A stretch of DNA of 64,000 bases from a virus: positions 7,785 to 71,784 of IMG/VR virus record IMGVR_UViG_3300017766_002362, one strand, 5' to 3'. This document shows positions 15,948 to 56,108 of the stretch, one piece after another. Below the pieces are notes generated by a model. The model ran no database searches and had not been told where the DNA came from. It saw nothing but the letters and a program-made list of their open reading frames with translations. Positions within the stretch are counted from its first letter, which is position 1. Every line of letters begins with the position of its first letter. The position numbers were made by a program, and so were the translations under genes.

Positions 15948-15949
15948 GA

Positions 15950-17839: not shown

Positions 17840-17845
17840 ACAACC

Positions 17846-17905: not shown

Positions 17906-17914
17906 CGCACCAAC

Positions 17915-17938: not shown

Positions 17939-17962
17939 CTTCGTTTCTAGTAGCAGACTAGA

Positions 17963-18934
17963 TTAGAACGCAAATACAAGGTCTACCATTAGACGCTTGT
18001 AATCGGCTTTGGCTGCACCAACCTCTACATCAAAGAGACTGCCGCGAACCTTCCAACCGTCAGCGAGCCCATAGGCTACGCGAATGGCTGTACCGTCATG
18101 AAGTGTTGCTTCACCACCAAAGTCACTATCAGTCCAAACGGCTGAGAGCGCATTGGCTTCTGCATCTTGCTTCAATAGACTTACTTCCCAATCACCTGCA
18201 TTTTTTGCATTTCCAAAGGTAACACCGTATGCTGTTGCCTTTTCTTGGGTTTTAGCCTCATCGTTGGTTAGTTGCTCAACAAAAAGTTTTACTGGAACAC
18301 CAGCAACATCCTTCTTGAGTGATGCACCAAGAACTAGTTGATCATGCTTTACGAGAGCATTACCAACTTTGACTTCCTGCTTCAATGTTGTCGCATGAGC
18401 AGCAACATCAAGACCAGCAAGTTTCTTGCTCAAACCAACTTGTAGACCAACAAGATCGCTGTCTTTTGCAACACCACCTTCAACTAATTTTAGATTGAAA
18501 GCACTGGCTGAAAGACCGCTGTCATGTTTCACCGCAACTGCCAATCCTTCTGGCTTGATGTCGTTATCGAAAAATAACGCATCAGAATGCCAAGGACGAT
18601 TCATCTTGCCAAGTGTTACCTTTGCAAATGGCGCAGCTGCATATTCAACATATGCCAAATTAAGTCCAACATTCTTCAATGAATTGCCTTCGCCAATGTC
18701 ATTCCAAGATGACTTTGTTGATCCAGTGCGAACACCGAATACAACTTTTGTCTTGTCATTGACATCAGCAGTTGCATTTAATTGCAAACGAAGACGATCA
18801 CGATTAGAGTTGACTGAACCAACTTCAAGATCATCGCTACGATAACCAAAGTCGCCACTCAACTTCACATCAGCAGCCTGTGCTACTGAGAACATTGCAC
18901 TCAAAATAACAGATGCTAGAATTGCTTTACGCAT
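17963..18934 (-). CDS. Putative outer-membrane porin
   Basis: Signal peptide (AQA), amphipathic beta-strands, RDRLRL and FDNDIKPEG motifs, C-terminal Phe. Confidence 0.8.
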   Translation of the reverse strand: MRKAILASVILSAMFSVAQAADVKLSGDFGYRSDDLEVGSVNSNRDRLRLQLNATADVNDKTKVVFGVRTGSTKSSWNDIGEGNSLKNVGLNLAYVEYAAAPFAKVTLGKMNRPWHSDALFFDNDIKPEGLAVAVKHDSGLSASAFNLKLVEGGVAKDSDLVGLQVGLSKKLAGLDVAAHATTLKQEVKVGNALVKHDQLVLGASLKKDVAGVPVKLFVEQLTNDEAKTQEKATAYGVTFGNAKNAGDWEVSLLKQDAEANALSAVWTDSDFGGEATLHDGTAIRVAYGLADGWKVRGSLFDVEVGAAKADYKRLMVDLVFAF

Positions 18935-40608: not shown

Positions 40609-40980
40609 TTAGTATACTGTGACTGACAAACCTGGAACTTTAACAGCAAACCCACCATCTGTGTTTATAACATACACAGCATAATTCGCGGCTGGTAATG
40701 CAGGTGTTGTAAATTGTAGATTGCTTGCACTTATATAACTCATCGCTGGGACCGCAGCATTATTAACATAAACATTCGAATTCGCATAAAACCCTGAGCC
40801 TGTTAAATATATTGTCTGTCCACCATTCGAGTTCGCGCTAGTATTTGCCCCAGGATATATAATTGTTTTTATTTTTGGACCACTACCAGCAACGATAGTG
40901 TCGCTCAATGCTGTTGTAAGTTGTGTTGAAGTAATCGTATTATTTGCAAACGCCTTACTTCCGTCTAACTTACCAGGCAT
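40609..40980 (-). CDS. Stand-alone IPT/TIG protein, paralogue of the N-terminus of 38029..40596
   Basis: Both begin MPGKLDGSK and share GPKIK..IYPG, GGQTIY..GSGF, FTTPAL. Confidence 0.8.
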   Translation of the reverse strand: MPGKLDGSKAFANNTITSTQLTTALSDTIVAGSGPKIKTIIYPGANTSANSNGGQTIYLTGSGFYANSNVYVNNAAVPAMSYISASNLQFTTPALPAANYAVYVINTDGGFAVKVPGLSVTVY

Positions 40981-40989: not shown

Positions 40990-41367
40990 TCAAGGTGTTG
41001 GTTCTGGTGCTGGTACTACAACCCAAGACAATGTTTCTTCATTCCATGAATATGATTGTCCATCGGTTGGCATCGCAACTGGCGCTTCCCATGAACAACT
41101 TGTTTCATTTAATACCCAAGAAGCATGTGGTTTTGGTGGAATGAATGCATTGCGCGTAGCATCAAAAGTATATCCGTTACCAGCATAATGCTTACGAAAA
41201 TTTGCATTGTAACTTGTTTGCTTCCAAGTACCGCCAAATAATCTTTCACAAAATGCAGCGCCAATGTATTCTTTCTCTACGCCATTTGCGTCAGAGGTAT
41301 CCTTGTTGCCAACAACAATAACTTCTGTAACTATATTATTTTCGTCTAATTTTGCAAAATGTGCCAT
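40990..41367 (-). CDS. Phage tail-region protein (MAHFAKLD...WKQTSYN...YAG.GY)
   Basis: Motif pattern familiar from aquatic phage tail loci. Confidence 0.75.
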   Translation of the reverse strand: MAHFAKLDENNIVTEVIVVGNKDTSDANGVEKEYIGAAFCERLFGGTWKQTSYNANFRKHYAGNGYTFDATRNAFIPPKPHASWVLNETSCSWEAPVAMPTDGQSYSWNEETLSWVVVPAPEPTP

Positions 41368-41978
41368 TAAACTTTATCTCCTAATATCAATTCCGTTAAA
41401 TTTTCATTTAATCCACATGTACCCTTAAAGAAGGTATTAAATGCCAAACTAATTCTTGTATTCTCAGCCTCAACAGTTTGAACCATATGAGTCAATGAGG
41501 AAGGAAATACAACCATCTTTTTAGTTGCAACTTCAAACCACCAAGAATCAGAGTTCGACAAATTCCATTCTTTTGGTTCAAATTTAATTTGACTATATCC
41601 TTCTTTAAAAAAATAAATTTTATCTTTCGTCGGATCAGCCTCTATATAAAACACACCAGATAAAAAACTATTTGGATGCGCATGTTTATGATGATATTGA
41701 CCCTTCTCACTAAAATTCAACCAAGACTGAGTTACATACAATTCTACGTCAGTTTTTGGTGCATAAATTTGTTGAAAATATGTATTAACAGAATCCTCAA
41801 TAAATTTATTCAATCCCTTCAACTGTTTTTTTCGTAAAATATAATTATCTACACTCGTTGTATTTCCCTGGTTTGGTCTTTTTTCCTGCTTTAGAACAAA
41901 ATCAATTTCTGCTTTAGTCAATTCACGATCTAGTTCAAACATTCCAACTGTCGTTGGAAAAATATTATATAAATTCAC
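41367..41978 (-). CDS. 2OG-Fe(II) oxygenase (TIGR02466-like)
   Basis: IFPT, TQSWLN, HHKHAHPNSFLSGVFY, FPSSLTHMV, RISLAFN. Confidence 0.88.
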   Translation of the reverse strand: MNLYNIFPTTVGMFELDRELTKAEIDFVLKQEKRPNQGNTTSVDNYILRKKQLKGLNKFIEDSVNTYFQQIYAPKTDVELYVTQSWLNFSEKGQYHHKHAHPNSFLSGVFYIEADPTKDKIYFFKEGYSQIKFEPKEWNLSNSDSWWFEVATKKMVVFPSSLTHMVQTVEAENTRISLAFNTFFKGTCGLNENLTELILGDKV

Positions 41979-42451: not shown

Positions 42452-43417
42452 TTAAATGATAGTCATGTATACTCTTGAGATGCCATTGGCGCTTGGAGTT
42501 CCTGTATTGCCAGCATCACCTCTGTTTGGATCTGAGCTGTTTCCTACGGTGGTTCCTGAACCAGAAAAATGAGTTACTGCGGTTGCACGACTTAAATTTG
42601 TTGTGTTACTGCTGGATCCACCACCACCACCTCCGCCAGCGATACAACATAGCATTCCCCCACCGCCGCCGCCGTAGTATCCACCACCGCCACCGCCACC
42701 AGTACCATTGGTGTATGTTCCACCAGAACCACCGAATAATGCTGCACCTGCAGTTCCTGTGCCTGCAGGTGCTGTGCCTGGACCAGCGCCACCACCACCC
42801 GCTTGTGATCCACCGCCTGCAGTGGTGCCTGGGTATCCACTGCTTGATTGTCCACTTGGATATCCACCAGCACCACCAGTGGCTCCTCTTCCACCAGTGT
42901 CGTAAGCAGCACCGCCACCGCCACCTGCTATAAGAATTGTATTTGCATGAACAACGGTGCTTCCATGAAATATGCCAGCATAGTTTCCACCCTCACCTGA
43001 TGCTCCAGCTTGACCGCCAGTATTACCACCACCAAAGTGAACGTTAATTGTCTGGTCTACTGTAAATATGAGTGTTGCCATTAACGCAGCACCAGCACCA
43101 CCAACATAGTCGACTGTGTTAGATCCACCAGCACCCCACATTTTTACGTTAACATTAAACGATTTTTGTGGCGTTAGCACATAACTTCCGTTACTTGAAC
43201 TGATGTTTAATGCTCCGTCAACATTAAAGTCCCATGTGGTTTTTCCTTCGAATGCTGGGCTAATTGACACAGAATTTGCAGTTACAGCAGCTCCTGGCCA
43301 ATTGCTTGTTTGTCGACCAAATCGAAAATCTTCAACGCTGAATACTCTTCCAGTTGTTGATATTGTTACTGGAGTTTGATTTGCGCCGATAATATTAAAA
43401 TTATTTCTAATTCTCAT
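42452..43417 (-). CDS. Glycine-rich virion protein (cassette 3)
   Basis: WGAGG, IAGGGGG, GGGGGGYYGGGGG. Confidence 0.8.
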   Translation of the reverse strand: MRIRNNFNIIGANQTPVTISTTGRVFSVEDFRFGRQTSNWPGAAVTANSVSISPAFEGKTTWDFNVDGALNISSSNGSYVLTPQKSFNVNVKMWGAGGSNTVDYVGGAGAALMATLIFTVDQTINVHFGGGNTGGQAGASGEGGNYAGIFHGSTVVHANTILIAGGGGGAAYDTGGRGATGGAGGYPSGQSSSGYPGTTAGGGSQAGGGGAGPGTAPAGTGTAGAALFGGSGGTYTNGTGGGGGGGYYGGGGGGMLCCIAGGGGGGGSSSNTTNLSRATAVTHFSGSGTTVGNSSDPNRGDAGNTGTPSANGISRVYMTII

Positions 43418-43419
43418 AG

Positions 43420-43776
43420 TTAGGAAATTGTCTCATAACTTGCTGTAATTGTTACAGACGCATTTGCACTGACATTTGCCTGCAGCACATCACCTTCTAG
43501 CATATAGATAGACATATCCTTTGCTAAAAGAACCAATGCTGAGGTTGCTGGAATACTAACATTGCCGCCCAAAAAATATTTTGTAGAACTTCTGTCTACG
43601 ACAACATTTGCCAATACTGTACTAGCAGAATAGTTGCTCAATATAATATTATTTAATTTATGCACAGTTCCACTTGCCGCGCTGTTGGTAAGCACATTCG
43701 TTGTTGCAGTGGTAAGATTATTTAATGCTGTATTGCCGTAAATTGATGCTACAGCCACTATATTAGGATTAGCCAT
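43420..43776 (-). CDS. Small beta-sandwich virion protein (MANPNIV type; cassette 3)
   Basis: SIPATSALVLL.K...Y.LEGD.L...SYE.IS. Confidence 0.75.
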   Translation of the reverse strand: MANPNIVAVASIYGNTALNNLTTATTNVLTNSAASGTVHKLNNIILSNYSASTVLANVVVDRSSTKYFLGGNVSIPATSALVLLAKDMSIYMLEGDVLQANVSANASVTITASYETIS

Positions 43777-43777
43777 T

Positions 43778-44173
43778 TTATCCTCCGAAGACAATAGACA
43801 TTGCTATTGCTTTTCCTGTTGTTACTGTTACTGTTGCATTTGATCCTGCTGCTGTATACACATCGATCACTGAATTAGCATCTGGAGCAGATGTAAACGA
43901 AAGAGTTGTATATGATACATTGTATTCATTATTTCTTTGTAAAACTCTATCTACATAAACAGAGCAATGATCTTCATTTATCGGGATTACAGTCAGTATA
44001 AAGTTTGTATTCGATCCATCACCAACAAATGAGTCTCTTGTAATTCCAAGATTTACCGTTCCATCTACGACGTAAATAGACCACGCATTTGCAGCTGAAT
44101 TGTATTTCCACGTACGATTGTTGTAGGAATACGTTTCATTGTTGACTGGTGAATTTGGAAAATTAATTGGCAT
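43778..44173 (-). CDS. MPINFP-type virion protein ending TGKAIAMSIVFGG (cassette 3)
   Basis: Shared N-terminus with 46292..46717. Confidence 0.75.
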   Translation of the reverse strand: MPINFPNSPVNNETYSYNNRTWKYNSAANAWSIYVVDGTVNLGITRDSFVGDGSNTNFILTVIPINEDHCSVYVDRVLQRNNEYNVSYTTLSFTSAPDANSVIDVYTAAGSNATVTVTTGKAIAMSIVFGG

Positions 44174-44208
44174 TTTCTAATGCGCCTCTGTGTATTGTTG
44201 TATTTATT

Positions 44209-45936
44209 TTACGCATTAAGTTTAATTATAACAACACCTGAGCCACCAGCGCCACCACTTACAGATACAGTTGGAGCGTTATAAGGATAACCTCCTCCAC
44301 CTCCTCCGCTACCTGTATTTACAGTACCAGTTCCAGCAGCGGTTGGTGAAGTTGATCCAGCACCACCACCGCCGCTGCCTCCAGCACCTGTGCTAAATGG
44401 TCCGCAACATCCAGGACCTGTGTTCCATCCGCCGCCTCCGCCACCTCCTGCGCGAGTTACCGATGTTCCTGTAATTGTTGATGCTGCTCCAGCACCACCA
44501 TTTCCAGAAAAACCACCATACTGACCACTTACTCCACCATCACCACCAACAGCACTTGCGCCGCCACCGCCAGCACCTTGCGTAAAACCGTCCTGATAGC
44601 CAGGAGAACCACCACCTCTAAATCCTTGAGCTGGTGATGTTGATGGAACATTCCCTAAACCATAAGTCGCGCCAGTTCCACCACCACCAGAACCTCCATC
44701 TCTTCCAGCGGTATTGGCTCTTCCGCCACCACCGCCACCACCAGCAGAAGTTATAGTATCAAAAATAGAACTGCTGCCATTGGCGCCTCTGCCGTTATCA
44801 GCAAATCCAGGCGAACCTGCTCCACCAGCACCACCAGCACCAACTGTAATCGTGTAGGTATTGCCAGCAGTTATTGGATATGATGTTCCTGTTCTATATC
44901 CGCCAGCACCACCACCACCGCCAGAACCAGATCCGCCACCGCCGCCACCGCCGATAACTAGATAATCGACAGAAGTAAAGCCTGTTGGACAAATCCATTC
45001 TGCTGTTGAACTGAAGATTTGGACTTGACCAGTTTCAATTGGTATACCATATTTTAGAATGACAACACCAGAACCGCCAGCTGCTCCTGCTCCAATTGGT
45101 TGGCCATCATTATTGCCGCCTCCGCCTCCGCCACCACCTAGATTGGCTGTTCCAACGGTTGCCACAGTCCCTGGATAAACTCCACCATTTCCGCCACCGC
45201 CTGTGCCGCCAGGACCAGGACTATTAGCACCGCCACCGCCACCGCCAGCATAAGTTGTTGACGTTCCTGTAATCGAAGAAGCAGATCCATTACCACCACC
45301 TTGAGCAGTAGCAGCAGCACCAGCTCCTCCTCCTCCACCACCATAATATGGTGCACCGCTTGCGCCAGAAGCACCATTGTTTCCTTGTGATGGTGATGTT
45401 GATGGGGTGTTACCTGCGCCACCTGATCCACCATTAAATTTGCCACCACCACCAGAACCTCCACTTAGACCAGGTATACCCTGTGTGGATCCGCTCGCGC
45501 CACCGCCACCGCCACCACCTGCAGAAGTAACTGATGGGAAAATAGAACTTGATCCGTTTGATCCTGAAGTGCTAGAACTACCTGCTCCACCAGCACCTAC
45601 TGTAATTGTATATGTTGTTCCAGCAGTAACTAATAAACCTGTTCCTGTTCTAAATCCACCAGCACCGCCACCACCACTTCCACCAGAATTTGGTCCTGCA
45701 TTTCCACCACCACCGCCACCACCGATAACTAGATAATCAACAGAAATAACACCTGTTGGACAAACCCATGTTCCAGATTCTTTAAAGGTAACAATAACAG
45801 TACGGCGCAACGATGCATCGCTGATAAAATTATAATGACGCATCTCATTAATGTCATGTAAAGACCAAATACCAACTGTGTTGGCAGGAGTTTCGCTTTT
45901 TAAATTTCTTTTTCCGAGGAAAATTGTATTATTCAT
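44209..45936 (-). CDS. Glycine-rich virion protein with two repeated domains (cassette 2)
   Basis: W.CPTG..SVDYLVIGGGGGGG twice; ends GVVIIKLNA. Confidence 0.85.
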   Translation of the reverse strand: MNNTIFLGKRNLKSETPANTVGIWSLHDINEMRHYNFISDASLRRTVIVTFKESGTWVCPTGVISVDYLVIGGGGGGGNAGPNSGGSGGGGAGGFRTGTGLLVTAGTTYTITVGAGGAGSSSTSGSNGSSSIFPSVTSAGGGGGGGASGSTQGIPGLSGGSGGGGKFNGGSGGAGNTPSTSPSQGNNGASGASGAPYYGGGGGGAGAAATAQGGGNGSASSITGTSTTYAGGGGGGANSPGPGGTGGGGNGGVYPGTVATVGTANLGGGGGGGGNNDGQPIGAGAAGGSGVVILKYGIPIETGQVQIFSSTAEWICPTGFTSVDYLVIGGGGGGGSGSGGGGGAGGYRTGTSYPITAGNTYTITVGAGGAGGAGSPGFADNGRGANGSSSIFDTITSAGGGGGGGRANTAGRDGGSGGGGTGATYGLGNVPSTSPAQGFRGGGSPGYQDGFTQGAGGGGASAVGGDGGVSGQYGGFSGNGGAGAASTITGTSVTRAGGGGGGGWNTGPGCCGPFSTGAGGSGGGGAGSTSPTAAGTGTVNTGSGGGGGGYPYNAPTVSVSGGAGGSGVVIIKLNA

Positions 45937-45952
45937 AACTCTTTAACTTGTA

Positions 45953-46279
45953 TTAAGTTATTTGTAGTAAACTGATTGTAACATCAATATGGCTGTTTGC
46001 TGATGCAAGTCCAGAAATATAGTCTCCTGCTTCAAGAACAAGTTTTCCAGTGAGAAATGTCGTGGCAGAATCTGCAGGAACAGGAACTGTTCTTGTTAGA
46101 TACTTCTTAGTTGCTGCGCTGCTGTCTGTTGCGAACATCGTTATATCTGCAGAGTTAGCACCATCGCTATTCGCTGCTTGACTCAATATGAGTATAGATG
46201 TTGTATTTGCTGGTGACACATAGACGTTTGCTTCCGCAGTCGTCAATGTTTGATTCACCATTTTAAATGTTTCTGCCAT
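45953..46279 (-). CDS. Small beta-sandwich virion protein (MAETFK type; cassette 2)
   Basis: VPADS....GKLVLEAGD...SLLQIT. Confidence 0.75.
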   Translation of the reverse strand: MAETFKMVNQTLTTAEANVYVSPANTTSILILSQAANSDGANSADITMFATDSSAATKKYLTRTVPVPADSATTFLTGKLVLEAGDYISGLASANSHIDVTISLLQIT

Positions 46280-46291
46280 TTTATTCTCCGA

Positions 46292-46717
46292 TTATGATAT
46301 GGCGATTACTAAACCTAACGATACTCCGCCAGTGCCACTCGCGCCTTGTACGCCAAGAGTACCTTGTGAGCCTACAGTTCCTTGGATTCCTTGGCTTCCA
46401 ATAGTGCCTTGCGCACCTGATCCAATAGTGCCTTGCACACCTTGAGGACCAGTAACGCCCTGGAGTCCTGGTGGACCAAGTTCTATCCATTGATCACTGT
46501 CGCCATCATTGATATACTTATACAATGCTCCAGTATCAGGATTAAACCATTCATCACCAACAGCTGGAGAAACTGGAGCAGTATTTGTAGACGCAAATCC
46601 AGTTGATCCTATCGTTTGAATAATCCAGGCGCCAGACGCTGAATTATAAACCCATGAACGACCACCATACGAATAAGTTTGATTATTTGTTGGTGAATTT
46701 GGAAAATTAATTGGCAT
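46292..46717 (-). CDS. MPINFP-type protein with short collagen stretch, ending GVSLGLVIAIS (cassette 2)
   Basis: GDEWFN..TG.LYKY..DGDS.QW module plus GxQ triplets. Confidence 0.8.
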   Translation of the reverse strand: MPINFPNSPTNNQTYSYGGRSWVYNSASGAWIIQTIGSTGFASTNTAPVSPAVGDEWFNPDTGALYKYINDGDSDQWIELGPPGLQGVTGPQGVQGTIGSGAQGTIGSQGIQGTVGSQGTLGVQGASGTGGVSLGLVIAIS

Positions 46718-46752
46718 AGTTTATTTTATCTCTAAAATTTTAGATATTTATT

Positions 46753-48402
46753 TTACGCATTAAGTTTAATTATAACGACACCAGAACCGCCAGAAGCGCC
46801 ATTTGTAGAGTTACCTCCACCGCCACCTCCTCCACCGAGATTAGCAGTTCCAGATGTTGCTGCAATTGAAGATGATCCATTACCTCCACCACCAGAGCCA
46901 CCAGTTCCAACAGTAGCTGGAGCAGCTGCAACAACACCACCACCACCTCCACCAGCATAGGTCACTGATGTGCCAGAAAGAGATGATGCAGTTCCAGTTC
47001 CGCCATTACCTCCTGCAGAATTAGTTCCATTTGAACCAACAGCACCTGCACCACCACCACCTGCACCACCATAATTAGGCGCATTACCACCTGATCCACC
47101 ATTATTTCCTTGTGATGGTGATGTTGATGGTGTGTTGCCAGTGCCTGCATTTGATCTATTTGCTCCTCCTCCACCTGATCCACCACTTGCTCCTGCTGCA
47201 GGTGCATTCGGTAATGCTGGACCATTTGAACCACCACCACCACCGCCATTAGAGGTTATTGTACTAAATGTTGAATTCCCGCCAGAACTTCCTTGCGCTG
47301 TTGTTGATGATCCTGCTCCTCCAGCACCTACTGTAATCGTGTAGGTATTGCCAGCAGTAACTGATAAGCCAGTGCCAGTTCTAAATCCACCTGCTCCTCC
47401 ACCACCAGCACCAGTAAATCCTCCTCCACCACCACCAGCAACAACGAGATAATCAACAGATGTGACACCTTCTGGGCAAATCCATTCGGCTGATGAGTTG
47501 AATACTTGTGCACCTGTTCCTGGCATTGTGTATTTAAGAATAACGACACCAGAGCCGCCAGCAGCACCAGCGTTCGCAATATTGCCGCCACCACCACCGC
47601 CACCACCTAAATTGGCTGTTCCTGCTGTTCCTGTGCTGCCGCTACCAGCACCGCCGCCACCAGAGCCACCTGCACCACCAGTACTATTTCCACCACCACC
47701 ACCACCTCCTGCGCGAGTTACTGCCGTTCCTGTAATGGTTGATGATGCTCCAGCACCACCAGCACCACCAGCAGCATTTGGTGCATTTCCACCAACAGCC
47801 CCTGCGCCTCCGCCTCCACCGCCACCAAATCCTGGTCCGCCTGGTGCTGGTGAACCATTTCCTCCAGCATTTCCTTGTGATGGTGATGTTGATGGAGTAT
47901 TTCCTGGATATCCGAAACCAGATGGTCGACCACCACCGCCTGATCCACCAGCAGCAGCATCTCCAGTTGGATATCTGCCTCCACCACCACCACCATTTGA
48001 TGTTATAGTGCTAAAAATTGTATTTCCGCCAGGAAATCCAATAGTACCGCTCGGAGCAACGCCAGTTCCACCAGCACCACCAGCACCTACTGTAACTGTG
48101 TAAGTGTTTCCAGCAGTGACTGATAGACCTGTTCCTGTTCTGTAACCACCTGCTCCTCCGCCACCCGAAAGAGTACATCCACCTCCAGCTCCACCAGCAA
48201 TCACAAGATATTCAACTTCAGTGACGCCTGTTGGTGCAGTCCATGAACCAGATTGATTGAATACAAGAACAACAGTTCTAGGTGGCGCCACAAAATTCCA
48301 TAATGGATTATTGATTCTGCCAGGATTTAATGCATTGTATTTGCCCGTCGGAGAGTATCCGAGAGCAGTTAAAGATGCTAATGAAAAAACTTTAATAGCC
48401 AT
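46753..48402 (-). CDS. Glycine-rich virion protein with two repeated domains (cassette 1)
   Basis: Paralogue of 44209..45936; ends GVVIIKLNA. Confidence 0.85.
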   Translation of the reverse strand: MAIKVFSLASLTALGYSPTGKYNALNPGRINNPLWNFVAPPRTVVLVFNQSGSWTAPTGVTEVEYLVIAGGAGGGCTLSGGGGAGGYRTGTGLSVTAGNTYTVTVGAGGAGGTGVAPSGTIGFPGGNTIFSTITSNGGGGGGRYPTGDAAAGGSGGGGRPSGFGYPGNTPSTSPSQGNAGGNGSPAPGGPGFGGGGGGGAGAVGGNAPNAAGGAGGAGASSTITGTAVTRAGGGGGGGNSTGGAGGSGGGGAGSGSTGTAGTANLGGGGGGGGNIANAGAAGGSGVVILKYTMPGTGAQVFNSSAEWICPEGVTSVDYLVVAGGGGGGFTGAGGGGAGGFRTGTGLSVTAGNTYTITVGAGGAGSSTTAQGSSGGNSTFSTITSNGGGGGGSNGPALPNAPAAGASGGSGGGGANRSNAGTGNTPSTSPSQGNNGGSGGNAPNYGGAGGGGAGAVGSNGTNSAGGNGGTGTASSLSGTSVTYAGGGGGGVVAAAPATVGTGGSGGGGNGSSSIAATSGTANLGGGGGGGGNSTNGASGGSGVVIIKLNA

Positions 48403-48403
48403 A

Positions 48404-48736
48404 TTAGGTAATTTCTACACCAAAGACGCTAAACGAAACATTACTATTTGCTGAATAAACAGAAACCACATCGGTATTTCCTAAAGAAAGACCAAGAGAA
48501 AGAGCAACTGTATCAAGTGCAGTTACAGTTGAATCGTATGCAATATAATGTTGATTTGCTAATGCTGCTCCAGCTGGCTGTACGGCAAGACGATATGTAA
48601 TATTTGCGTTGTTATTTCTGTTTGTAACTACAATAGAAGAAACAACTGCTTGCGTACTTGCTGGGACAGTGTAAACATTTGCGGTTGTTGCTGCGTTTGG
48701 AGCAGATTGACCTAATACTTTATATGTTTGTGGCAT
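48404..48736 (-). CDS. Small beta-sandwich virion protein (MPQTYKVLGQ type; cassette 1)
   Basis: YTVPASTQAVVSS...YIAYD...FSVFGVEIT. Confidence 0.75.
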   Translation of the reverse strand: MPQTYKVLGQSAPNAATTANVYTVPASTQAVVSSIVVTNRNNNANITYRLAVQPAGAALANQHYIAYDSTVTALDTVALSLGLSLGNTDVVSVYSANSNVSFSVFGVEIT

Positions 48737-48750
48737 TTAAAATTACCTTA

Positions 48751-51700
48751 TTATAAGCCAAGTAAAAATGGATGGAATACTTCAGTGACTGCAGCTCCTT
48801 GAACACCCTGAACACCCTGCGCACCTATTGTGCCTTGAACACCTGCGCCTGTTGTTCCAACTTCTGCCCACTGATTGCTGTCTCCATCGCTAATATATTT
48901 AAGCAAGACACCAAGATCGGTGTTGAACCATTCATCGCCAGAAGCTGGTGATACTGGAGCAGTGTTTCCAGAAGTAAATGTACCGCCACCACCGCCACCG
49001 CCTGTAATTGTAACAGTGACATCATTGTTTGAGTTGCTCGCAGTGACTCCAGCACCAACAAAGTTAATACTTGCAACATTTGTTGTTATATTAGAGCCTT
49101 CATCTTTGATTGTAATTGCAGCTGCGCCACCACCGCCACCACCAGAGGCACCTTGAATTCCTTGGATACCTTGTACACCTGTGCCAGTCGCACCTTGAGT
49201 GCCTGCTCCAGTGGTTCCTTGTGCTCCAATTGTTCCTTGAGTGCCTGTTGTTCCTTGTGGACCAAGATCAGATATATTAATTGGTCCACCCATTGCTGAG
49301 TGATTTTGGCAGACATAATATAATGTGCTAGGTGCATTATATGGAACTGCAAATGTTATTGCTCCAACCTGCGCGCCGCCATTCGTAACACCAGTGCTGT
49401 AAGTATTTCCAGCATTGTAAGCACCAGAACTTGTCTGGAACCAGAAAGGATGCCCAGAAGCATTTACATCAAAAATATAAGTAAATCCACGCAACAGATT
49501 TAGTGTTGGATTATTTGATCCATCAATTGTGTAAGCACTAGAACCACTGTTTGTAACAGTGTATGTTCTTGCGCCGAGAGCACCTTGTGTGCCTTGCGTT
49601 CCAATCGCTCCCTGTGATCCTATTGTTCCCTGCGAGCCTACTGCACCTTGAGTTCCTAATGTTCCTTGAGAACCATTAGTTCCTTGAGTTCCTGTTAGAC
49701 CTTGTGAACCTACAGCACCTTGAGTTCCTAATGTTCCTTGTGAACCTAATGCGCCTTGCGATCCTATAACACCTTGAGAACCTACAGCACCCTGAGTTCC
49801 TAGAGTTCCTTGAGTCCCTAATGTTCCTTGTGAACCAATAACACCTTGTGTTCCTAATGTTCCTTGAGAACCTACAGCACCCTGAGTTCCTAGAGTTCCT
49901 TGTGATCCTTCAATTCCTTGAGAACCTATTAGACCTTGTGATCCAACAGTTCCTTGAGTTCCTAATGTTCCTTGTGTTCCACTGGCTCCTTGTGTTCCAG
50001 TTGTTCCTTGCGCACCAGTGTCTCCCTTATCACCAGTGCGAACAAATGTAATAATAACGTTTGTTGAGTTTGGTAGTGCGGTTATGCCTGCTGTGTGAGC
50101 AATCGGAACGGAGAAATAATTAGGAAGTTCGACATGCAAACCTGTGATATTAAAGAACGCAAATTCAAGAACATTTGCAGTGTTTGCAACTTTAAATGTT
50201 CCCTTAATTGAAGAAGTTGAATCATCAATTGTTTGCAAATAATTAAACACATTTGCTGTAGATTGATCAATGAAATCAATAAACAATGCATTTGCTGAAG
50301 AGAATGTTGTATTATTAAATTTAAGATTTCCGTTGCCTGGATCTGTGTTTGCAGTGTCAGTTAGATACGCATAATCAAAAGTTGCACCACCGAAGTCACC
50401 AGTGTCGCCCTTTACGCCTGTTGTACCTTGTGTTCCAATTAAACCTTGGGATCCAATTGTTCCCTGTGATCCAACTGTTCCTTGAGATCCATCAGTTCCT
50501 TGAGTTCCTGTTAGACCTTGTGAACCCACAGTGCCTTGTGAACCATTAGTGCCTTGCGATCCTACTGTTCCTTGCGTTCCTTCAGTTCCTTGAGATCCTG
50601 TAGTTCCTTGAGTGCCGTTTGTTCCTTGTGAACCAGTTGCGCCTTGAGATCCTGTTAGACCTTGCGTTCCTTCAGTTCCTTGAGATCCTGTAGTTCCTTG
50701 AGTGCCGTTTGTTCCTTGTGAACCTACAGTACCCTGAGAACCTTCAGTACCTTGTGAACCTGTAGTTCCTTGAGATCCTACTGTTCCTTGAGTTCCGTTT
50801 GTTCCTTGTGAACCCACAGTGCCCTGCGAGCCTACTGTTCCTTGTGATCCTGTTGTTCCCTGAGATCCTGCAGTACCCTGAGAACCTTCAGTTCCTTGCG
50901 AACCAGTGACACCTTGAGATCCAGTTAATCCTTGCGAACCTGTTAGACCTTGTGATCCAATTAAACCCTGCGATCCGTCAGTTCCTTGCGAGCCTGTTGT
51001 TCCCTGTGAGCCAGTGACGCCTTGAGATCCAGTTAATCCTTGCGAACCTGTTGTTCCTTGAGTTCCGTTTGTTCCTTGTGTACCTGTTGCTCCTTGCGAT
51101 CCTACTGTTCCTTGGATTCCAGTATCACCATTTCTTGATATATTAAATCCTGTTAGATCACCATCGTCTATTGCATCAGAAGATATTGAAAGTGTTGTAA
51201 CTCCAATCTCATAATATCCAGTTTTCTTTGTAATATTATCAACTTGAAGATACCATCTTTCAGTTGCCGCAGAACCACGAAGGCTCAAGAAACCCTTTGG
51301 TGTTGCTGATGAGTTGAATACTTGACTTATGAATGGATAAACATTAGCACCAGCAACATCATTATCATCTAACCAAATTTTTGTAATTGCTGATTGTGTG
51401 TTAGGATTATCGCAGTGGAATGATTGAGAATCTGGTGCAGTGTCTGTTGTTTTTGCAGTATCAAAGGTGTAGAAGAAGAATCCGCCGACAGCACCAACAG
51501 AACCTGTAGTACCTTGTGTACCATCAGTTCCTTGTAAACCTAATGTTCCTTGTGCGCCTGTTAATCCTTGAGATCCAGTTAAACCCTGCGAGCCTACTGT
51601 TCCTTGTGATCCTGTTGTTCCCTGTGAACCAGAGACGCCTTGAGATCCTACTGTTCCTTGAGTTCCCTCAGCTCCTTGAGATCCTGTAGCACCTTGAGTT

Positions 51701-54700
51701 CCATTAGTGCCTTGCGATCCTACTGTTCCTTGTGCGCCATTTGTTCCTTGCGCACCAGTTGTACCTTGTGATCCAGATCCTGTAGTACCTTGTGTACCAT
51801 CAGTTCCTTGTACGCCACTAGATCCTTGCGAACCAGTCGCACCTTGAACTCCAGTATCACCCTTGTCACCAGTTCGAACAAACGTAATGACAACATTTGT
51901 AGAGTCAGGTAATGTTGTTACGCCAACAGTATGAGCAACAGGAATAAAGAAGTAATTTGCAACATGACCATGCAAGCCATTAATATCAAAAAATGCAAAC
52001 TCAAGAACGTTTGCTGTATTCGCAACTTTAAATGTTCCCTTAATCGTTGATGTTGAATCATCAATCGTTTGGAGATAATTGAAAACGTTTGCAGCACTTT
52101 TATCTAGGAAATCAATGTATAATGTTGTTGCTGATGATAGTGTGGTGTTATCAAATTTTAAATTTGCTGTTCCAGGATCTGTGTTTGCTGTATTCGTTAA
52201 GTAGATGTAATCGAACGACGCACCACCAAAACTACCAGTGTCGCCCTTTAGACCTGTTGTTCCCTGTATTCCAGTTAGACCTTGGGATCCAATTGTTCCC
52301 TGTGATCCAACTGTTCCTTGAGATCCATCAGTTCCTTGTACACCAAGTGTTCCTTGTGAACCAATAACTCCCTGAGAACCATTAAGACCCTGAGATCCAA
52401 TTGTTCCCTGCGCTCCTAATGTTCCTTGAGATCCTGTTGTTCCTTGAGATCCAATTAAACCTTGCGCACCTTCTGTACCTTGCGAACCAGTAACTCCCTG
52501 AGAACCAGTTAATCCTTGAGAACCTGTTAAACCTTGAGATCCAATTGTTCCTTGTAAACCATCTGTTCCCTGCGTACCTGTTGATCCTTGAGAACCAGTT
52601 GTTCCTTGTGATCCTGTTGTTCCTGTTGAACCATTTGAACCAGTAAGACCTTGAGATCCAATCGTTCCCTGCGAACCGTCAGTTCCTTGAGTTCCTAATG
52701 TTCCTTGAGAACCTGTTAAACCTTGAGATCCAGTGGTTCCTTGTGATCCTATAATACCTTGAGAGCCTATTGTTCCTTGAGCACCTAACGAACCTTGAGT
52801 TCCATTAGTACCTTGCGATCCTTCAGCACCTTGAGATCCAGTGACACCCTGAGATCCTGTAGTTCCTTGTGAACCAAGAGTTCCTTGAGTTCCCAGTGCG
52901 CCTTGTATACCAGGATTTCCTAGTGTTCCTTGAGTACCAATAACACCTTGAACGCCTTGAGAACCAATTGCTCCTTGCGTCCCTGTCCCAGTTAAACCTT
53001 GTATACCAATTAATCCTTGCGTTCCTTCAGTTCCTTGAGATCCAGTAGTTCCTTGGGTTCCGTTTGTTCCTTGTGTACCTGTTAATCCTTGAGAACCAAT
53101 TGTTCCTTGAGCACCACTTCCTGTAGCACCTTGCGTACCGTCAGTTCCTTGTGTACCTGTTAATCCTTGAGAACCAATTGTTCCTTGAGCGCCACTTCCT
53201 GTTGTTCCTTGTGTTCCAAATGTTCCTTGAACACCCTGAACACCTTGCGATCCCAATGTTCCTTGAGGTCCAACAGCACCTTGAGCGCCTATAGCACCTG
53301 TTGCACCAGCAAGATTAACTTCCCAATTGTTGAAACTTCCAGAACCACTAGTGGTCGTCACATTAAGACTTAATTCACCAGTTGATTCATTATAATCTGT
53401 AACAACACCTTCCATGTAAATACTGGAAGTGTTAGCAACTCTTACTTCTTGAGAAATCGAGTATGCTAGATCTGCTGCGATAGTGAGTAATTTGATACCT
53501 TCAGAAATCGACAACGTTGTTGTACTTACAGTTTGATACGTATCTCCAGCTAAACCAATTAATCCTTGAGCACCAAGAGTTCCTTGAGATCCTAAAGTTC
53601 CTTGCGATCCTCGAGTTCCTTGAATGCCTTGAGTACCTTGTACTCCGAGGGAACCTTGCGTTCCTTGCGAACCTTGTGTTCCAGTTAAACCTTGGGATCC
53701 TTCTGTTCCTTGAGATCCTATTGTTCCCTGCGCACCTGTTGATCCTTGTACACCAAATGCGCCTTGAGATCCAGTAACACCCTGAGATCCTGTAGTTCCT
53801 TGTGAACCTCCAGTTCCTCCAGTTCCTTGCGATCCTGTGTTTCCTTGAGTTCCTGTTAATCCTTGTGAACCTGTAGTTCCCTGTGATCCAGTTGTTCCTT
53901 GATTACCAATCGCGCCTTGGGAACCTGTTGTTCCTTGCGTCCCATCAACGCCTTGAGAACCAATAGTTCCTTGAGCACCAAGAGTTCCTTGAGTGCCATT
54001 TGCGCCTTGCGTTCCACTAGCACCTTGAGAACCAATAGTTCCTTGAGCACCAAGAGTTCCCTGCGCTCCTAATGTTCCTTGAGATCCTGTTGTTCCTTGT
54101 GGACCACCTGATGGACCTTGTAAACCTGTAGATCCTTGTGGACCTGTTGTTCCTTGTGTTCCAACTTTAATGAGAAGTGAAGTAGCAGCCCATGTATCAA
54201 GAGTGCTAGTCGTAAATAATGCTTGATTATATCTTAGATAAACACCACTATATGTTTTTGCTCCTGCTGGAACAGAAATTTCTTTGAGCGTCCAAGTATT
54301 TCCAGTTTGATCAGCAACAGCAGATGTGTGCATTGTTGTCCATGTATTACCATCTGCGGAATACTGAACTAGGAAATCTTCATTTACATCAGGTGATTCA
54401 CCCCAATTACCATCCAATCCAGCATTAACATAATAGTACGCATAATCAACGAACACCAAGAAAACTTTATTCTTAGTAGTAACTGTTCTGTTTGATATTC
54501 CATCAAATTTTATAATTGATGCGGAACTTGGAACAACTGCTGTGGTACTTAAACCTGAGACTGAATTTACTGTGGTTACAGTTGCGCCAGAGCCAACATT
54601 TAATGTTGTTTCTGCGCTGAGGTCAAGTAACGCATAACCTGTTGTACCAGTAAATCCTTGTGTACCTTGTACACCTTGTGCTCCACTTCCTGTTGATCCT

Positions 54701-55671
54701 TGCACACCGAAAGGACCTTGTGTACCTGTTGCGCCTTGTGTACCTGTTGGACCTTGGAAAGTGCCCATGTCGACATACAATCCTTCTCCTGTATATGCAT
54801 ACAAATGTGGAGTAGGAATGCCGTCTAGTACAACATATGAATCACCAATATTTGGTGTTGGTGAAAGTGGTAGATTGGTGTTTGTAGAAACTGATCCTTT
54901 TAGAATCAATGTACCTGCTGAAACACCACCGATCGTTGATCCTGCTGGCAAACTAATTGCTGTGCCATCAGAGGACATTGAAACGCCACCGAGATTGATT
55001 GTTGTACCAGAAAGATACAAGTCTCTCCATCGGTGCGTAGGACTACCCAAGTCGTAAACTTCATTCAATGATGGGACGAGATTACCAGCAACATTTGATG
55101 TTACTCTCAATACACTCGCATTAAGAGTTGCAACGTTTGCTGATGTTGCATTTATTGTTGCGACATTCGTAATAGCAAAATTATTTGCGTCTAGATTTGC
55201 TGTGAGTGAACCACCAGTTAATATTCCACCACCAATCGCACCCTGAATACCAGCTAAACCTTGAGAGCCTGTTGCTCCTTGTACACTGGCGCCAGTTGTT
55301 CCTTGTGCGCCTAATGCTCCTTGAGCACCTAGTATTTGACCTGCGTTAATATATCCGCTTTGTGTTGATGAATAGATATAAAGATTGCTGTCTTCAATAA
55401 CAATATATCCATCACCATCATTCGCAGAAGGTGGTAGATCTGAAATTAGGCTGACTGTTCCTGCAACTTGTAATCCGCTGCCAGTATTACCCCTGACACC
55501 TTGTATTCCTTGTATTCCAGTGCCAGTCGTTCCTTGACTACCCTGCACACCTTGCGAGCCATCTTCTCCAATATGACCTTGTGCGCCTGTAGCACCTTGC
55601 GCACCACTTGGACCAGTGGCACCAACTGTTAACGAAACAAGTCTATTTTGGCTATTATTTGTAATCTTCAT
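48751..55671 (-). CDS. 2306-aa collagen-like fibre protein
   Basis: Hundreds of Gly-X-Y triplets (GSQGTT/GTQGAT) interrupted by globular modules; ends EVFHPFLLGL. Confidence 0.92.
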   Translation of the reverse strand: MKITNNSQNRLVSLTVGATGPSGAQGATGAQGHIGEDGSQGVQGSQGTTGTGIQGIQGVRGNTGSGLQVAGTVSLISDLPPSANDGDGYIVIEDSNLYIYSSTQSGYINAGQILGAQGALGAQGTTGASVQGATGSQGLAGIQGAIGGGILTGGSLTANLDANNFAITNVATINATSANVATLNASVLRVTSNVAGNLVPSLNEVYDLGSPTHRWRDLYLSGTTINLGGVSMSSDGTAISLPAGSTIGGVSAGTLILKGSVSTNTNLPLSPTPNIGDSYVVLDGIPTPHLYAYTGEGLYVDMGTFQGPTGTQGATGTQGPFGVQGSTGSGAQGVQGTQGFTGTTGYALLDLSAETTLNVGSGATVTTVNSVSGLSTTAVVPSSASIIKFDGISNRTVTTKNKVFLVFVDYAYYYVNAGLDGNWGESPDVNEDFLVQYSADGNTWTTMHTSAVADQTGNTWTLKEISVPAGAKTYSGVYLRYNQALFTTSTLDTWAATSLLIKVGTQGTTGPQGSTGLQGPSGGPQGTTGSQGTLGAQGTLGAQGTIGSQGASGTQGANGTQGTLGAQGTIGSQGVDGTQGTTGSQGAIGNQGTTGSQGTTGSQGLTGTQGNTGSQGTGGTGGSQGTTGSQGVTGSQGAFGVQGSTGAQGTIGSQGTEGSQGLTGTQGSQGTQGSLGVQGTQGIQGTRGSQGTLGSQGTLGAQGLIGLAGDTYQTVSTTTLSISEGIKLLTIAADLAYSISQEVRVANTSSIYMEGVVTDYNESTGELSLNVTTTSGSGSFNNWEVNLAGATGAIGAQGAVGPQGTLGSQGVQGVQGTFGTQGTTGSGAQGTIGSQGLTGTQGTDGTQGATGSGAQGTIGSQGLTGTQGTNGTQGTTGSQGTEGTQGLIGIQGLTGTGTQGAIGSQGVQGVIGTQGTLGNPGIQGALGTQGTLGSQGTTGSQGVTGSQGAEGSQGTNGTQGSLGAQGTIGSQGIIGSQGTTGSQGLTGSQGTLGTQGTDGSQGTIGSQGLTGSNGSTGTTGSQGTTGSQGSTGTQGTDGLQGTIGSQGLTGSQGLTGSQGVTGSQGTEGAQGLIGSQGTTGSQGTLGAQGTIGSQGLNGSQGVIGSQGTLGVQGTDGSQGTVGSQGTIGSQGLTGIQGTTGLKGDTGSFGGASFDYIYLTNTANTDPGTANLKFDNTTLSSATTLYIDFLDKSAANVFNYLQTIDDSTSTIKGTFKVANTANVLEFAFFDINGLHGHVANYFFIPVAHTVGVTTLPDSTNVVITFVRTGDKGDTGVQGATGSQGSSGVQGTDGTQGTTGSGSQGTTGAQGTNGAQGTVGSQGTNGTQGATGSQGAEGTQGTVGSQGVSGSQGTTGSQGTVGSQGLTGSQGLTGAQGTLGLQGTDGTQGTTGSVGAVGGFFFYTFDTAKTTDTAPDSQSFHCDNPNTQSAITKIWLDDNDVAGANVYPFISQVFNSSATPKGFLSLRGSAATERWYLQVDNITKKTGYYEIGVTTLSISSDAIDDGDLTGFNISRNGDTGIQGTVGSQGATGTQGTNGTQGTTGSQGLTGSQGVTGSQGTTGSQGTDGSQGLIGSQGLTGSQGLTGSQGVTGSQGTEGSQGTAGSQGTTGSQGTVGSQGTVGSQGTNGTQGTVGSQGTTGSQGTEGSQGTVGSQGTNGTQGTTGSQGTEGTQGLTGSQGATGSQGTNGTQGTTGSQGTEGTQGTVGSQGTNGSQGTVGSQGLTGTQGTDGSQGTVGSQGTIGSQGLIGTQGTTGVKGDTGDFGGATFDYAYLTDTANTDPGNGNLKFNNTTFSSANALFIDFIDQSTANVFNYLQTIDDSTSSIKGTFKVANTANVLEFAFFNITGLHVELPNYFSVPIAHTAGITALPNSTNVIITFVRTGDKGDTGAQGTTGTQGASGTQGTLGTQGTVGSQGLIGSQGIEGSQGTLGTQGAVGSQGTLGTQGVIGSQGTLGTQGTLGTQGAVGSQGVIGSQGALGSQGTLGTQGAVGSQGLTGTQGTNGSQGTLGTQGAVGSQGTIGSQGAIGTQGTQGALGARTYTVTNSGSSAYTIDGSNNPTLNLLRGFTYIFDVNASGHPFWFQTSSGAYNAGNTYSTGVTNGGAQVGAITFAVPYNAPSTLYYVCQNHSAMGGPINISDLGPQGTTGTQGTIGAQGTTGAGTQGATGTGVQGIQGIQGASGGGGGGAAAITIKDEGSNITTNVASINFVGAGVTASNSNNDVTVTITGGGGGGGTFTSGNTAPVSPASGDEWFNTDLGVLLKYISDGDSNQWAEVGTTGAGVQGTIGAQGVQGVQGAAVTEVFHPFLLGL

Positions 55672-55687: not shown

Positions 55688-56017
55688 TTATCTAGTAACT
55701 TGTGGCGTTACAGTGACAATTCCTTCCAAGATACGGTTTGTGGTTCCGCTTTGCAACATCTTTAAATCAAACAAATATCTTCCAGCTTTAATATTAGCAG
55801 TGTTAGCAGCATCAATACCTAAAATTATATCGCCATTGGCTGAATTCGCTTTTGTAACAGTTATATTAGCGGTTATATTTGACGAAAAGTATGATTTGCG
55901 GATTTGGCATGTGAATATGGCATTAGCCACGTTCATCGCAGAACCGTCGTCATTTGCTAGAGTAAGGTCAGAAGAAAACGTGGTTCCCTGATCTAAAGTT
56001 ATTTCTGCATATGCCAT
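55688..56017 (-). CDS. Small baseplate/fibre-attachment-like protein
   Basis: LDQGTTF...QIRKSY...AGRYLFD...RILEGIVTVTPQVT. Confidence 0.7.
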   Translation of the reverse strand: MAYAEITLDQGTTFSSDLTLANDDGSAMNVANAIFTCQIRKSYFSSNITANITVTKANSANGDIILGIDAANTANIKAGRYLFDLKMLQSGTTNRILEGIVTVTPQVTR

Positions 56018-56108
56018 TTAAACTTCTCTTTATATTACAATATTTAGGGTTGTTGTTAGTTTACTGCATAAAAAACCGCATTTTGTATTATTTATATTAA
56101 CAAAATTC

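Follow-up and report, generated by a model that had tools for sequence, protein, structure and literature searches.

The host range of tailed phages is set by the tips of their fibres. In the abundant cyanophages of the ocean fibres are modular, and one locus of an uncultured cyanophage, which carries three fibre cassettes in tandem on the minus strand, raises a specific question: what would direct each fibre tip to its own stalk? We analysed a 64,000-nucleotide stretch of this phage (IMG/VR record IMGVR_UViG_3300017766_002362, positions 7,785 to 71,784; hereafter the window) together with homologous loci. The sequence comparisons point to a matching system in which each type of connector tracks its own stalk-end peptide, and which would sort tips onto stalks.

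The initial annotation of this region described a three-gene order of stalk protein, small beta protein and glycine-rich protein that occurs three times. This order was confirmed, and all nine open reading frames (ORFs) are where it had placed them, on the minus strand and 1-16 nt apart within each cassette. We refer to the small and glycine-rich proteins as joint and distal proteins, after the putative roles argued for below. Stalk 1 (48751..55671) is a 2306-aa collagen-like fibre protein with globular repeats interspersed, scoring 491.3 bits over 19 stretches with Pfam Collagen (PF01391; gathering cut-off 27.2 bits), and ends in ..FHPFLLGL, the last residues of the type-1 C-terminal tail peptide (..EVFHPFLLGL, 48754..48783). 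It is followed by the type-1 joint protein (48404..48736; 110 aa, ending in GVEIT), a predicted 8-strand jelly roll, and by distal protein 1 (46753..48402; 549 aa, 34% Gly), in which a ~45-aa N-terminal head precedes two Gly_rich_2 domains, each a predicted TNF-like sandwich plus glycine-rich lattice. Stalk 2 (46292..46717; 141 aa) consists of an N-terminal anchor motif, a short collagen run (27.8 bits, above the same cut-off) and the type-2 tail ..SLGLVIAIS; the type-2 joint protein (45953..46279; 108 aa, ending in LLQIT) and distal protein 2 (44209..45936; 575 aa, 35% Gly, two Gly_rich_2 domains) follow. Stalk 3 (43778..44173; 131 aa) shares the anchor motif of stalk 2, had no PF01391 match in the Pfam search, and ends in ..GKAIAMSIVFGG, with ..TGKAIAMSIVFGG as the type-3 tail. 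The type-3 joint protein (43420..43776; 118 aa, ending in YETIS) was taken from the ATG used by its homologues instead of the earlier TTG at 43794 in the ORF list, and is followed by distal protein 3 (42452..43417; 321 aa, 26% Gly). A 109-aa gene lies 5' of stalk 1 on the same strand (55688..56017), with matches to PHROG 1084 and to PHROG 3304, 'L-shaped tail fiber protein assembly'. Since the same three-gene order was seen again in more than 100 viral contigs, the cassette pattern is far beyond chance.

A TAAATA late promoter had also been proposed upstream of each cassette, and this stood for cassettes 2 and 3, where ATAAATA late-promoter-like sites lie on the minus strand directly 5' of stalk 2 (46745..46751, within a 65-nt repeat that recurs at the cassette 2/3 boundary) and of stalk 3 (44201..44207). 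At 56041, the position proposed for cassette 1, only a weaker CTAAATA was present; the full T4-type late-promoter-like site, TATAAATA, instead occurs at 56089..56096 (minus strand), 5' of the 109-aa gene located ahead of stalk 1. All 8 ATAAATA sites of the window are on the coding strand, although shuffled sequence gives more sites in total, 14.3 on average when both strands are counted. Sigma-70-type promoter-like sites (28 vs 27.4) and terminator-like sites (7 vs 8.3) were at chance level in the region. The boundary formed by the 3' end of a glycine-rich gene, the promoter-like site and the 5' end of a stalk gene recurs in the window at a spacing of 2544 nt, and the tail and joint between its copies differ in type, a sign of module shuffling.

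The three small proteins of the window are paralogues that align over their full length with 23-33% identity, and a profile built from them matched just these three proteins in the whole 71.8-kb record. Clustered at 50% identity, the family has 1,498 representatives, and at 90% identity it forms 1,881 clusters. No Pfam family matched any of the three at E up to 0.01, and their PHROG matches (phrog_1276, 11338, 693 and 26609) were solely to families of unknown function or named 'tail fiber protein'. A literature search found no description of the small protein or of the tail motifs. The top match of the representative search (P0133; 4941 aa, 17 stretches) was discarded as a plant-like repeat protein containing TAXi domains. 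The structure prediction for the joint was an 8-strand jelly roll (pLDDT 93.4), and each of the three window copies is a ~110-aa predicted jelly roll encoded directly after an ORF with a type-matched hydrophobic end peptide. At Z 7-10 the model is similar to TNF/C1q heads and to the trimeric cement and turret proteins of phages. Jelly rolls are a generic fold, however, and nucleoplasmin cores are among the best matches (Z about 10). The sole match of the family profile among solved structures, MS2 coat protein (E 0.12), was treated as chance.

These features bear on a rival role for the small protein, that of an assembly chaperone or trimerisation nucleus, which would grip three stalk tails to start folding, for example in the collagen register, and leave before or after maturation without carrying a distal protein. 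A small gene directly after a fibre gene is in the usual position of a fibre chaperone, and the collagen-like stalks, two of the three here, need a nucleation site. In cyanophage Pam3, gp25 follows the fibre gene gp24 in this manner (PMC9608196). Like the joint proteins, Pam3 gp25 and the Tfa family are encoded beside fibre genes, and they recognise the distal fibre end. However, no chaperone-family profile (Tfa and similar) matched any of the three small proteins in Pfam or PHROG, and the predicted all-beta jelly roll is unlike the sandwich-plus-helix fold given for gp25 (PMC9608196).

The initial annotation had suggested checking whether each C-terminal motif is always followed by the same adaptor subfamily, and we ran this comparison across homologous loci. 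The loci were gathered with the three window proteins as seeds, so the typing is relative to those three. The 210 small-domain ORFs obtained were reduced to 74 representatives below 80% identity, 73 of which had an upstream ORF, encoding proteins of 29 to 2306 aa. When the last 10 aa of these upstream proteins were compared, the nearest tail preceded a joint of the same type in 70/73 non-redundant viral loci. Mean tail identity was 0.44 within and 0.20 between types, a difference unmatched in 10,000 label shuffles. By type (1, 2, 3), tail identity was 0.33, 0.51 and 0.55, against 0.10, 0.11 and 0.16 over the preceding 30 residues; conservation in the stalks is thus confined to the tail, with bodies otherwise unrelated. 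A single N-terminal anchor motif was found with type-1, type-2 and type-3 tails alike, and in 13 distinct multi-cassette loci every joint gene was preceded by a tail of its own kind. Tail patterns drawn up post hoc matched their own type alone in 24/30 (type 1), 13/18 (type 2) and 17/26 (type 3) cases, and several tails fall outside all three motifs (for example ..IRSIAMS, ..LWPAFILGG and ..QIMRIMGVW).

These counts are to be read in the light of the phylogeny, as the three types are three deep clades and the pairing therefore has few independent origins behind it. Moreover, tail and joint are only 0-16 nt apart and co-inherited. Type-specific recognition of the tail would also be compatible with a chaperone. 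A complex prediction with three copies each of the last 50 residues of stalk 1 and of joint 1, run without controls, scored 0.01 and 0.00, where the threshold was 0.32, and weighs neither for nor against the pairing.

Could the tails be conserved as DNA and not as peptides? On such a reading they would be recombination linkers at module borders without protein function, in keeping with the mosaic character of the region and the boundary DNA that is repeated in the window. We give this hardly any credence, as the mean nucleotide identity of the tails is just 0.46-0.59, and different codons are used at 50-74% of the identical tail residues. What is conserved is the protein sequence and not the DNA, and this comparison indicates that selection on the tail acts on the peptide.

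Natural fusions provided a further view of the small domain. In P0209 and P0227 the joint domain is N-terminal to a Laminin_G_3 domain, and in other proteins it precedes other C-terminal domains; in one locus (L063) the anchor is fused to the joint, and the junction is without the tail motif. The existence of fused forms of small domain and distal domain would fit a small protein that is just a distal-protein N-terminal domain split off into its own gene, with the tail serving stalk capping or folding; since neighbouring genes are inherited together, co-conservation would then follow from adjacency alone. This is improbable in our assessment. Recombination has repeatedly parted stalk body from tail but not tail from joint gene, although the intergenic gap is the natural break point, and both the protein-level conservation of the tail and its absence where anchor and joint are fused argue against it. 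The fusion of the joint domain to the N-terminus of lectin-like domains also argues against a chaperone that carries no distal protein.

We then considered family members in cultured phages. In cyanophage S-SCSM1, the 112-aa protein SSCSM1_27 matched the family profile (E 1.3e-14). Its gene begins 3 nt after that of a 'long tail fiber protein (virion protein)' with the tail ..PFILALGGN, and directly precedes that of a 'tail fiber protein (virion protein)'. SSCSM1_27 is itself labelled 'virion protein' in the database record, which would be unexpected for a chaperone that leaves the fibre. For this phage, the source paper reports 45 proteins identified by mass spectrometry of CsCl-purified virions (PMC9602691). 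In S-TIM5 and MaMV-DC, ~110-aa proteins of like fold bear the name 'Virion structural protein'. In S-SKS1, a fibre protein ending in ..PLIIALG is followed by a joint, a 1727-aa protein ending in ..PIMMGMIF, a type-3 joint and a 489-aa protein, so that two joint types occur in series. In the long tail fibre of T4, small proteins encoded between the fibre-segment genes, gp35 and gp36, join successive segments. The gene logic of S-SCSM1 and S-SKS1 is, by analogy, like that of these joints, but T4 has one fixed joint set without interchangeable types.

Type specificity extends to the protein encoded after the joint. By local alignment over its first 20 residues, the downstream protein had a nearest neighbour of the same type in 54/69 cases, compared with a mean of 24 and a maximum of 36 in shuffles; the same-type count dropped further into the protein, to 47 and then 35. 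When neighbours were limited to the other glycine class, the N-terminus still had a neighbour of the same type in 42/69. The local alignment superseded an initial crude similarity measure, which had given a weak difference (0.252 vs 0.205). The type specificity of downstream N-termini is weaker than that of the stalk tails. A type-specific N-terminus downstream is a further point against a chaperone, and a chaperone or trimerisation nucleus is on balance unlikely. We consider that the small protein is probably a structural, type-specific fibre joint linking the stalk and the distal protein. The joint proteins differ from Tfa and Pam3 gp25 in profile, in predicted fold and in the virion label of one homologue.

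What is mounted beyond the putative joint varies. Only 27/68 downstream proteins have at least 25% Gly, and among the rest are proteins with Laminin_G_3 lectin-like or unknown domains, so that a glycine-rich protein as a fixed part of the module was not borne out. In the window, Gly_rich_2 (PF21722; gathering cut-off 24.3 bits) matched distal protein 1 with 180.2 bits and distal protein 2 with 142.8 bits, with two domains in each. The model of domain 2 of distal protein 1 (pLDDT 95.4; Foldseek E 2e-6) has the TNF-like sandwich and multi-layer glycine-rich lattice of the Pam3 gp24-type receptor-binding domain. It shares the fold of the Pam3 fibre gp24 (PDB 7YPX/7YFW; 7ypx_A Z 16.4, rmsd 2.7, 183 residues, 30% identity) and of the glycine-rich tail-tip protein of mycobacteriophage Bxb1 (PDB 9D93, chains Qa/Qb; 9d93_Qa Z 15.8, 188 residues, 32% identity), while ALK/LTK glycine-rich domains scored Z 6.6-8.6. 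The Pam3 report proposes the TNF-like/glycine-rich part of gp24 as the receptor binder (PMC9608196). Pam3 gp24 is a single chain that includes its own helical domain for docking to the baseplate, and its chaperone, gp25, is a separate protein. In the phage studied here, by contrast, the domain is doubled, the N-terminal head is short, and separate stalk and joint genes lie ahead; because the Gly_rich_2 domains begin at about residue 45, there is no space for a long helical domain as in Pam3 gp24.

An analogy with gp38 adhesins had been drawn for the glycine-rich proteins. The T-even (S16/T2-type) gp38 likewise has a gene of its own and forms a glycine-rich tip attached non-covalently to the end of the trimeric fibre gp37, but has no third protein between fibre and adhesin, and no matched family of terminal peptides is described for it. 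No gp38 chain, including that of S16, was among the fold matches listed for the glycine-rich model, so membership of gp38 is unsupported; the glycine-rich proteins matched no Pfam gp38 family and had a weak match to PHROG 863 'tail fiber assembly' (E 8e-14 and 1e-5). We regard gp38 as an analogue only, with the Pam3 fibre and the Bxb1 tail-tip protein as the closest solved relatives. Of the plug-and-socket code put forward in the initial annotation, the pairing of motif class and adaptor subfamily is retained, the fixed glycine-rich partner is not, and gp38 serves as an analogy.

Distal protein 3 stands apart. It scored 10.1 bits (E 0.8) with Gly_rich_2, below the cut-off, and reached a probability of 4.7% against our in-house alignment of the domain (hhalign); BLASTP gave no similarity to distal protein 1 (E 3.7) or to the type-3-linked glycine-rich protein of another locus, L104 (E 16). 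A family shared with distal proteins 1 and 2 is not demonstrable for it at the sequence level. Among its 30 nearest Atlas clusters, which are viral glycine-rich neighbours found with a language model, 27 carry PF12810 ALK_LTK_GRD, a lead towards a possible kinship with ALK/LTK-type glycine-rich proteins. For distal protein 1, the sole matches among solved structures were monobodies (E above 0.1), which were not taken as relatives. Searches of a phage collection with distal protein 1 (tblastn, where the low-complexity filter strips glycine-rich queries) and with the DNA of the region (megablast, in a collection from which its own or near records may be absent) returned no match.

These observations are consistent with a model in which each cassette would encode a two-segment tail fibre or side fibre, its segments held together by the small joint protein. 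The stalk would begin with a proximal anchor, continue as a spacer, which in stalks 1 and 2 is collagen-like, and end in the conserved hydrophobic C-terminal tail of 8-13 residues. The ~110-aa jelly-roll protein would recognise this tail and would also receive the N-terminal head of the next-encoded protein, the putative distal receptor-binding part, here a predicted Pam3-type TNF-like and glycine-rich domain, present twice in each of distal proteins 1 and 2. There would be three or more matched types of tail, joint and head; with one set of each, this phage could attach each of its three tips to the stalk meant for it and avoid mix-ups. Other phages would use two types in series to set the order of segments in a longer fibre. 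We infer physical binding of tail to joint, and the joint stoichiometry likewise; the types would not cross-bind, and the tips may bind different receptors, giving several receptor specificities per virion.

A parallel is found in the cellulosome, where cohesin, a jelly-roll module, binds dockerin, a short terminal module of another protein, and several non-cross-reacting types direct assembly. The likeness is conceptual, with no kinship in sequence or context, and the partner here would be a peptide of 8-13 residues. By this analogy we tentatively propose, with a little less than even confidence, that the small jelly-roll family of marine and freshwater phages forms a cohesin-dockerin-like code of peptide-coded, mutually orthogonal connectors with at least three specificities. 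These connectors would assign each distal receptor-binding protein to its stalk and would also determine how the segments of long fibres follow one another.

The joint family is widespread and located right at the seams between fibre segments, and many 'hypothetical proteins' of cultured cyanophages, among them P-SSM2, S-SKS1, S-T4, S-CAM9, ACG-2014f, S-SCSM1 and the Ma-LMM01 group, can be re-annotated through it, in a family that has no Pfam model. If type-matched end peptides direct assembly, they would provide a simple rule for predicting fibre architecture from sequence, explain the mosaic pattern of fibre loci, and offer ready connectors that do not cross-react, with which the receptor-binding tips of laboratory phages could be exchanged. 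A connector code of this kind, if true, would account for the free shuffling of stalks and tips among these phages and may be usable for made-to-order fibres.

The source IMG/VR record is 71.8 kb long, with an estimated completeness of ~41%, and the window, which is part of it, has the gene content of a T4-like cyanophage. The initial annotation had described a three-gene fibre cassette occurring three times. All nine named genes were recovered in our ORF list exactly as described, on the minus strand at 42452-55671. Each cassette encodes a stalk with a hydrophobic C-terminal tail, a small protein of ~110 aa (here the joint protein, after its proposed role) and a distal protein. Stalk 1 (48751-55671, minus strand) is collagen-like and, at 2306 aa, very long (Pfam Collagen, 491 bits, 19 stretches), with repeated globular inserts in its translation. 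Stalk 2 (minus strand, 141 aa) carries a short Pfam Collagen run of 27.8 bits and stalk 3 (minus strand, 131 aa) has no Pfam collagen match; alignment showed that their first ~30 residues are common to both. Repeat families D16 and D17, spanning the 3' end of the upstream Gly-rich gene, a promoter-like region and the 5' DNA of stalks 2 and 3, recur at 2544-nt spacing. Translation and alignment also revealed at least two near-identical ~130-aa globular inserts amid the collagen runs of stalk 1 (..FDY.YLT.TANTDPG...VITFVRTGDKGDTG) and, near its C-terminus, a segment common to stalk 2 (..APVSPA.GDEWFN...).

The sequence ATAAATA lies 27-33 nt 5' of the start codons of stalks 2 and 3, and a full TATAAATA site lies 5' of the 109-aa gene preceding stalk 1. 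The window has eight copies of ATAAATA, every one on the minus (coding) strand, and shuffled sequence contains more (mean 14.3); this strand bias and rarity are consistent with a late-promoter motif being avoided at other positions. The 109-aa gene itself (55688-56017, minus strand), between TATAAATA and stalk 1, matches PHROG 1084 (unknown function) and also PHROG 3304 ('L-shaped tail fiber protein assembly', E 2e-16). Just downstream of the three fibre cassettes, two of which have a collagen-like stalk, is a 2OG-Fe(II) oxygenase gene (41367-41978, minus strand; PF13759, PHROG 81). Two further minus-strand genes encode an 855-aa protein with a TIG and three Laminin_G_3 domains (38029-40596) and a 123-aa TIG protein (40609-40980) with the same ~30-residue N-terminus (MPGKLDGSK..TIT.TQ). 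Short stalks in viral contigs L016 and L070 begin with a similar motif, and this N-terminus may be a shared virion-attachment peptide.

The three joint proteins align end to end at 23-33% identity and were the sole matches in a profile search of the record. None has a Pfam family. Their PHROG match is a family of unknown function where the domain makes up positions 1-110 of 325, with further matches to two 'tail fiber protein' families in which it is internal or C-terminal. A search at E up to 0.001 recovered 1,881 proteins among 90% identity clusters of similar length, and at the 50% level the family has 1,498 representatives. An AlphaFold2 model (105-row alignment, pLDDT 93.4) is an eight-strand beta sandwich whose closest structural matches are small jelly rolls: the plant HDT1 nucleoplasmin-like core (Z 10.1), the trimeric cement protein of phage KHP40 (Z 9.9), the HFTV1 turret (Z 9.2), Bacillus spore-appendage subunits (Z 9.0) and TNF/C1q heads (Z 7). 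The model says no more than that the fold is that of a generic oligomerising jelly roll. A viral structure library labels ~110-aa proteins of like fold from S-TIM5 and MaMV-DC as 'Virion structural protein', and the domain is also part of 'tail fiber-like' proteins in S-CAM1 and P-SSM2. Elsewhere it is fused directly to Laminin_G_3 (family proteins P0209 and P0227) or to unknown domains. Two IMG/VR contigs (L063 and L064) encode proteins of 171 and 194 aa in which an N-terminal anchor is fused to the joint domain without a tail motif, each followed downstream by a free joint gene and then a Gly-rich gene.

The initial annotation had inferred that each stalk tip recruits its own adaptor, and had suggested testing whether each C-terminal motif is always followed by the same adaptor subfamily. 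We collected 63, 33 and 80 viral contigs for the three window paralogues and ran a profile scan over all plus-strand ORFs of these loci, which yielded 210 joint-domain ORFs (206 single-domain, 131 non-identical). Joint type was assigned by best BLAST match among the three paralogues. Among 74 representatives below 80% identity, 73 had an ORF ending no more than 45 nt upstream. These upstream proteins ranged from 29 to 2306 aa, and their C-termini formed three visibly distinct motif classes according to joint type: ..(H/N)PFLL(M/A/G)G(A/M/L) for type 1, ..S(L/I/V)GL(V/L)(V/I)AL(S/G) for type 2 and ..TGK(A/S)IAMA(M/I)(V/I)FG(F/G) for type 3. Patterns drawn post hoc matched their own type alone in 24/30, 13/18 and 17/26 representatives, respectively. 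Six type 1, four type 2 and three type 3 tails fitted no pattern and one type 2 representative had no upstream ORF; of the remaining type 3 tails, three fitted both the type 1 and type 3 patterns and three the type 1 pattern only. A pattern-free comparison of the last 10 residues came out in favour of such a pairing, the nearest tail sharing joint type in 70/73 cases. Mean tail identity was 0.44 within and 0.20 between types, a difference matched by 0/10,000 label shuffles, although the shuffle test overstates the number of independent events because the types are deep clades and the tail adjoins the joint gene.

Linkage alone, or some other function of the tail, is an alternative that we consider improbable. 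The comparative case stands chiefly on how well tails are conserved beside stalk bodies that are unrelated: identity was 0.33-0.55 in the tail and 0.10-0.16, near background, in the preceding 30 residues. Thirteen distinct loci contain between two and four joint genes, and without exception each of these genes comes after a tail of the corresponding kind. Identical N-terminal anchor motifs were paired with differing tail types. Recombination has therefore shifted tail and joint as a pair against the stalk body and has not cut between them at the intergenic gap. That the tails are merely DNA-level recombination linkers is very hard to credit, since codons differ at 50-74% of identical tail residues and constraint therefore acts on the peptide.

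The distal proteins start -31 to +19 nt from the joint stop codon in the type 1 and type 2 loci listed. The first 20 residues of their N-terminal head are type-specific: the nearest neighbour was of the same type in 54/69 cases (shuffles: mean 24, maximum 36). The count dropped to 47 over the following 20 residues and to 35 over the 20 after those; with neighbours limited to the other glycine class, 42/69 were still of the same type. Beyond the head the proteins are variable. The cassette order in the initial annotation held, but a Gly-rich third protein was not a fixed part of it: only 27/68 reached 25% glycine, and others end in shared non-glycine domains. Distal proteins 1 and 2 each contain two Pfam Gly_rich_2 domains (180 and 143 bits). 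A model of a single domain (pLDDT 95.4) matched the Pam3 fibre (Z 16.4 over 183 residues, 30% identity; Foldseek E 2e-6), a Bxb1 tail-tip chain (Z 15.8) and ALK/LTK glycine-rich domains (Z 6.6-8.6). According to the Pam3 study, this counterpart is a TNF-like domain bearing a glycine-rich lattice, is a proposed receptor binder and resembles S16 gp38 only loosely (PMC9608196). Distal protein 3 is glycine-rich and fell below the Gly_rich_2 family threshold (E 0.8; hhalign probability 4.7%); its language-model neighbours, viral ALK/LTK-type glycine-rich proteins, provide a lead.

The same arrangement occurs in several isolates, among them P-SSM2. Pontimonas phage phiPsal1 has an 86-aa ORF (..ALMLMGG), a 111-aa 'putative virion structural protein' and a 298-aa Gly_rich_2 ORF. 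The last (6349-7245 of locus L002, E 1.4e-23), directly 3' of the joint gene, is unannotated in GenBank, where another ORF of 157 aa is given at this place. MaMV-DC encodes a 75-aa ORF (..LVGLGLGG) followed by proteins of 107 and 250 aa. Synechococcus phage S-SKS1 (locus L182, record 6206-18317) has two joints of different type in series: after a fibre and the first joint comes a 1727-aa protein that bears a tail for the second joint, which is followed by a 489-aa protein. This final gene is duplicated (489 and 470 aa, with lectin-like C-termini). In S-SCSM1, family member SSCSM1_27 (profile E 1.3e-14) is annotated 'virion protein' and is flanked by 'long tail fiber protein (virion protein)' and 'tail fiber protein (virion protein)'. 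Mass spectrometry detected 45 proteins in CsCl-purified S-SCSM1 virions (PMC9602691), and by the annotation of the record SSCSM1_27 would be among them. Many family members in cultured phages are annotated hypothetical.

The main competing explanation is that the small protein is an assembly chaperone recognising the tail. Four findings make this seem unlikely: SSCSM1_27 is annotated as a virion protein, joint domains occur fused to lectin-like domains, the head of the downstream protein is type-specific, and the small proteins match no chaperone family. All results combined, the small protein is probably a structural fibre joint.

Glycine-rich tips and fibre joints are already known kinds, and none of the papers that our literature searches listed describes the joint family, the three matched tail peptides or the type-specific heads. 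The fibre-joint reading is easily testable. The joint protein would grip the C-terminal tail of the stalk on one side and the N-terminal head of the distal protein on the other, with tail, joint and head forming at least three matched sets. One of each is present in the window phage, so that three tips could sort to three stalks, and S-SKS1 suggests that the same tail/joint code can set segment order in one long fibre.
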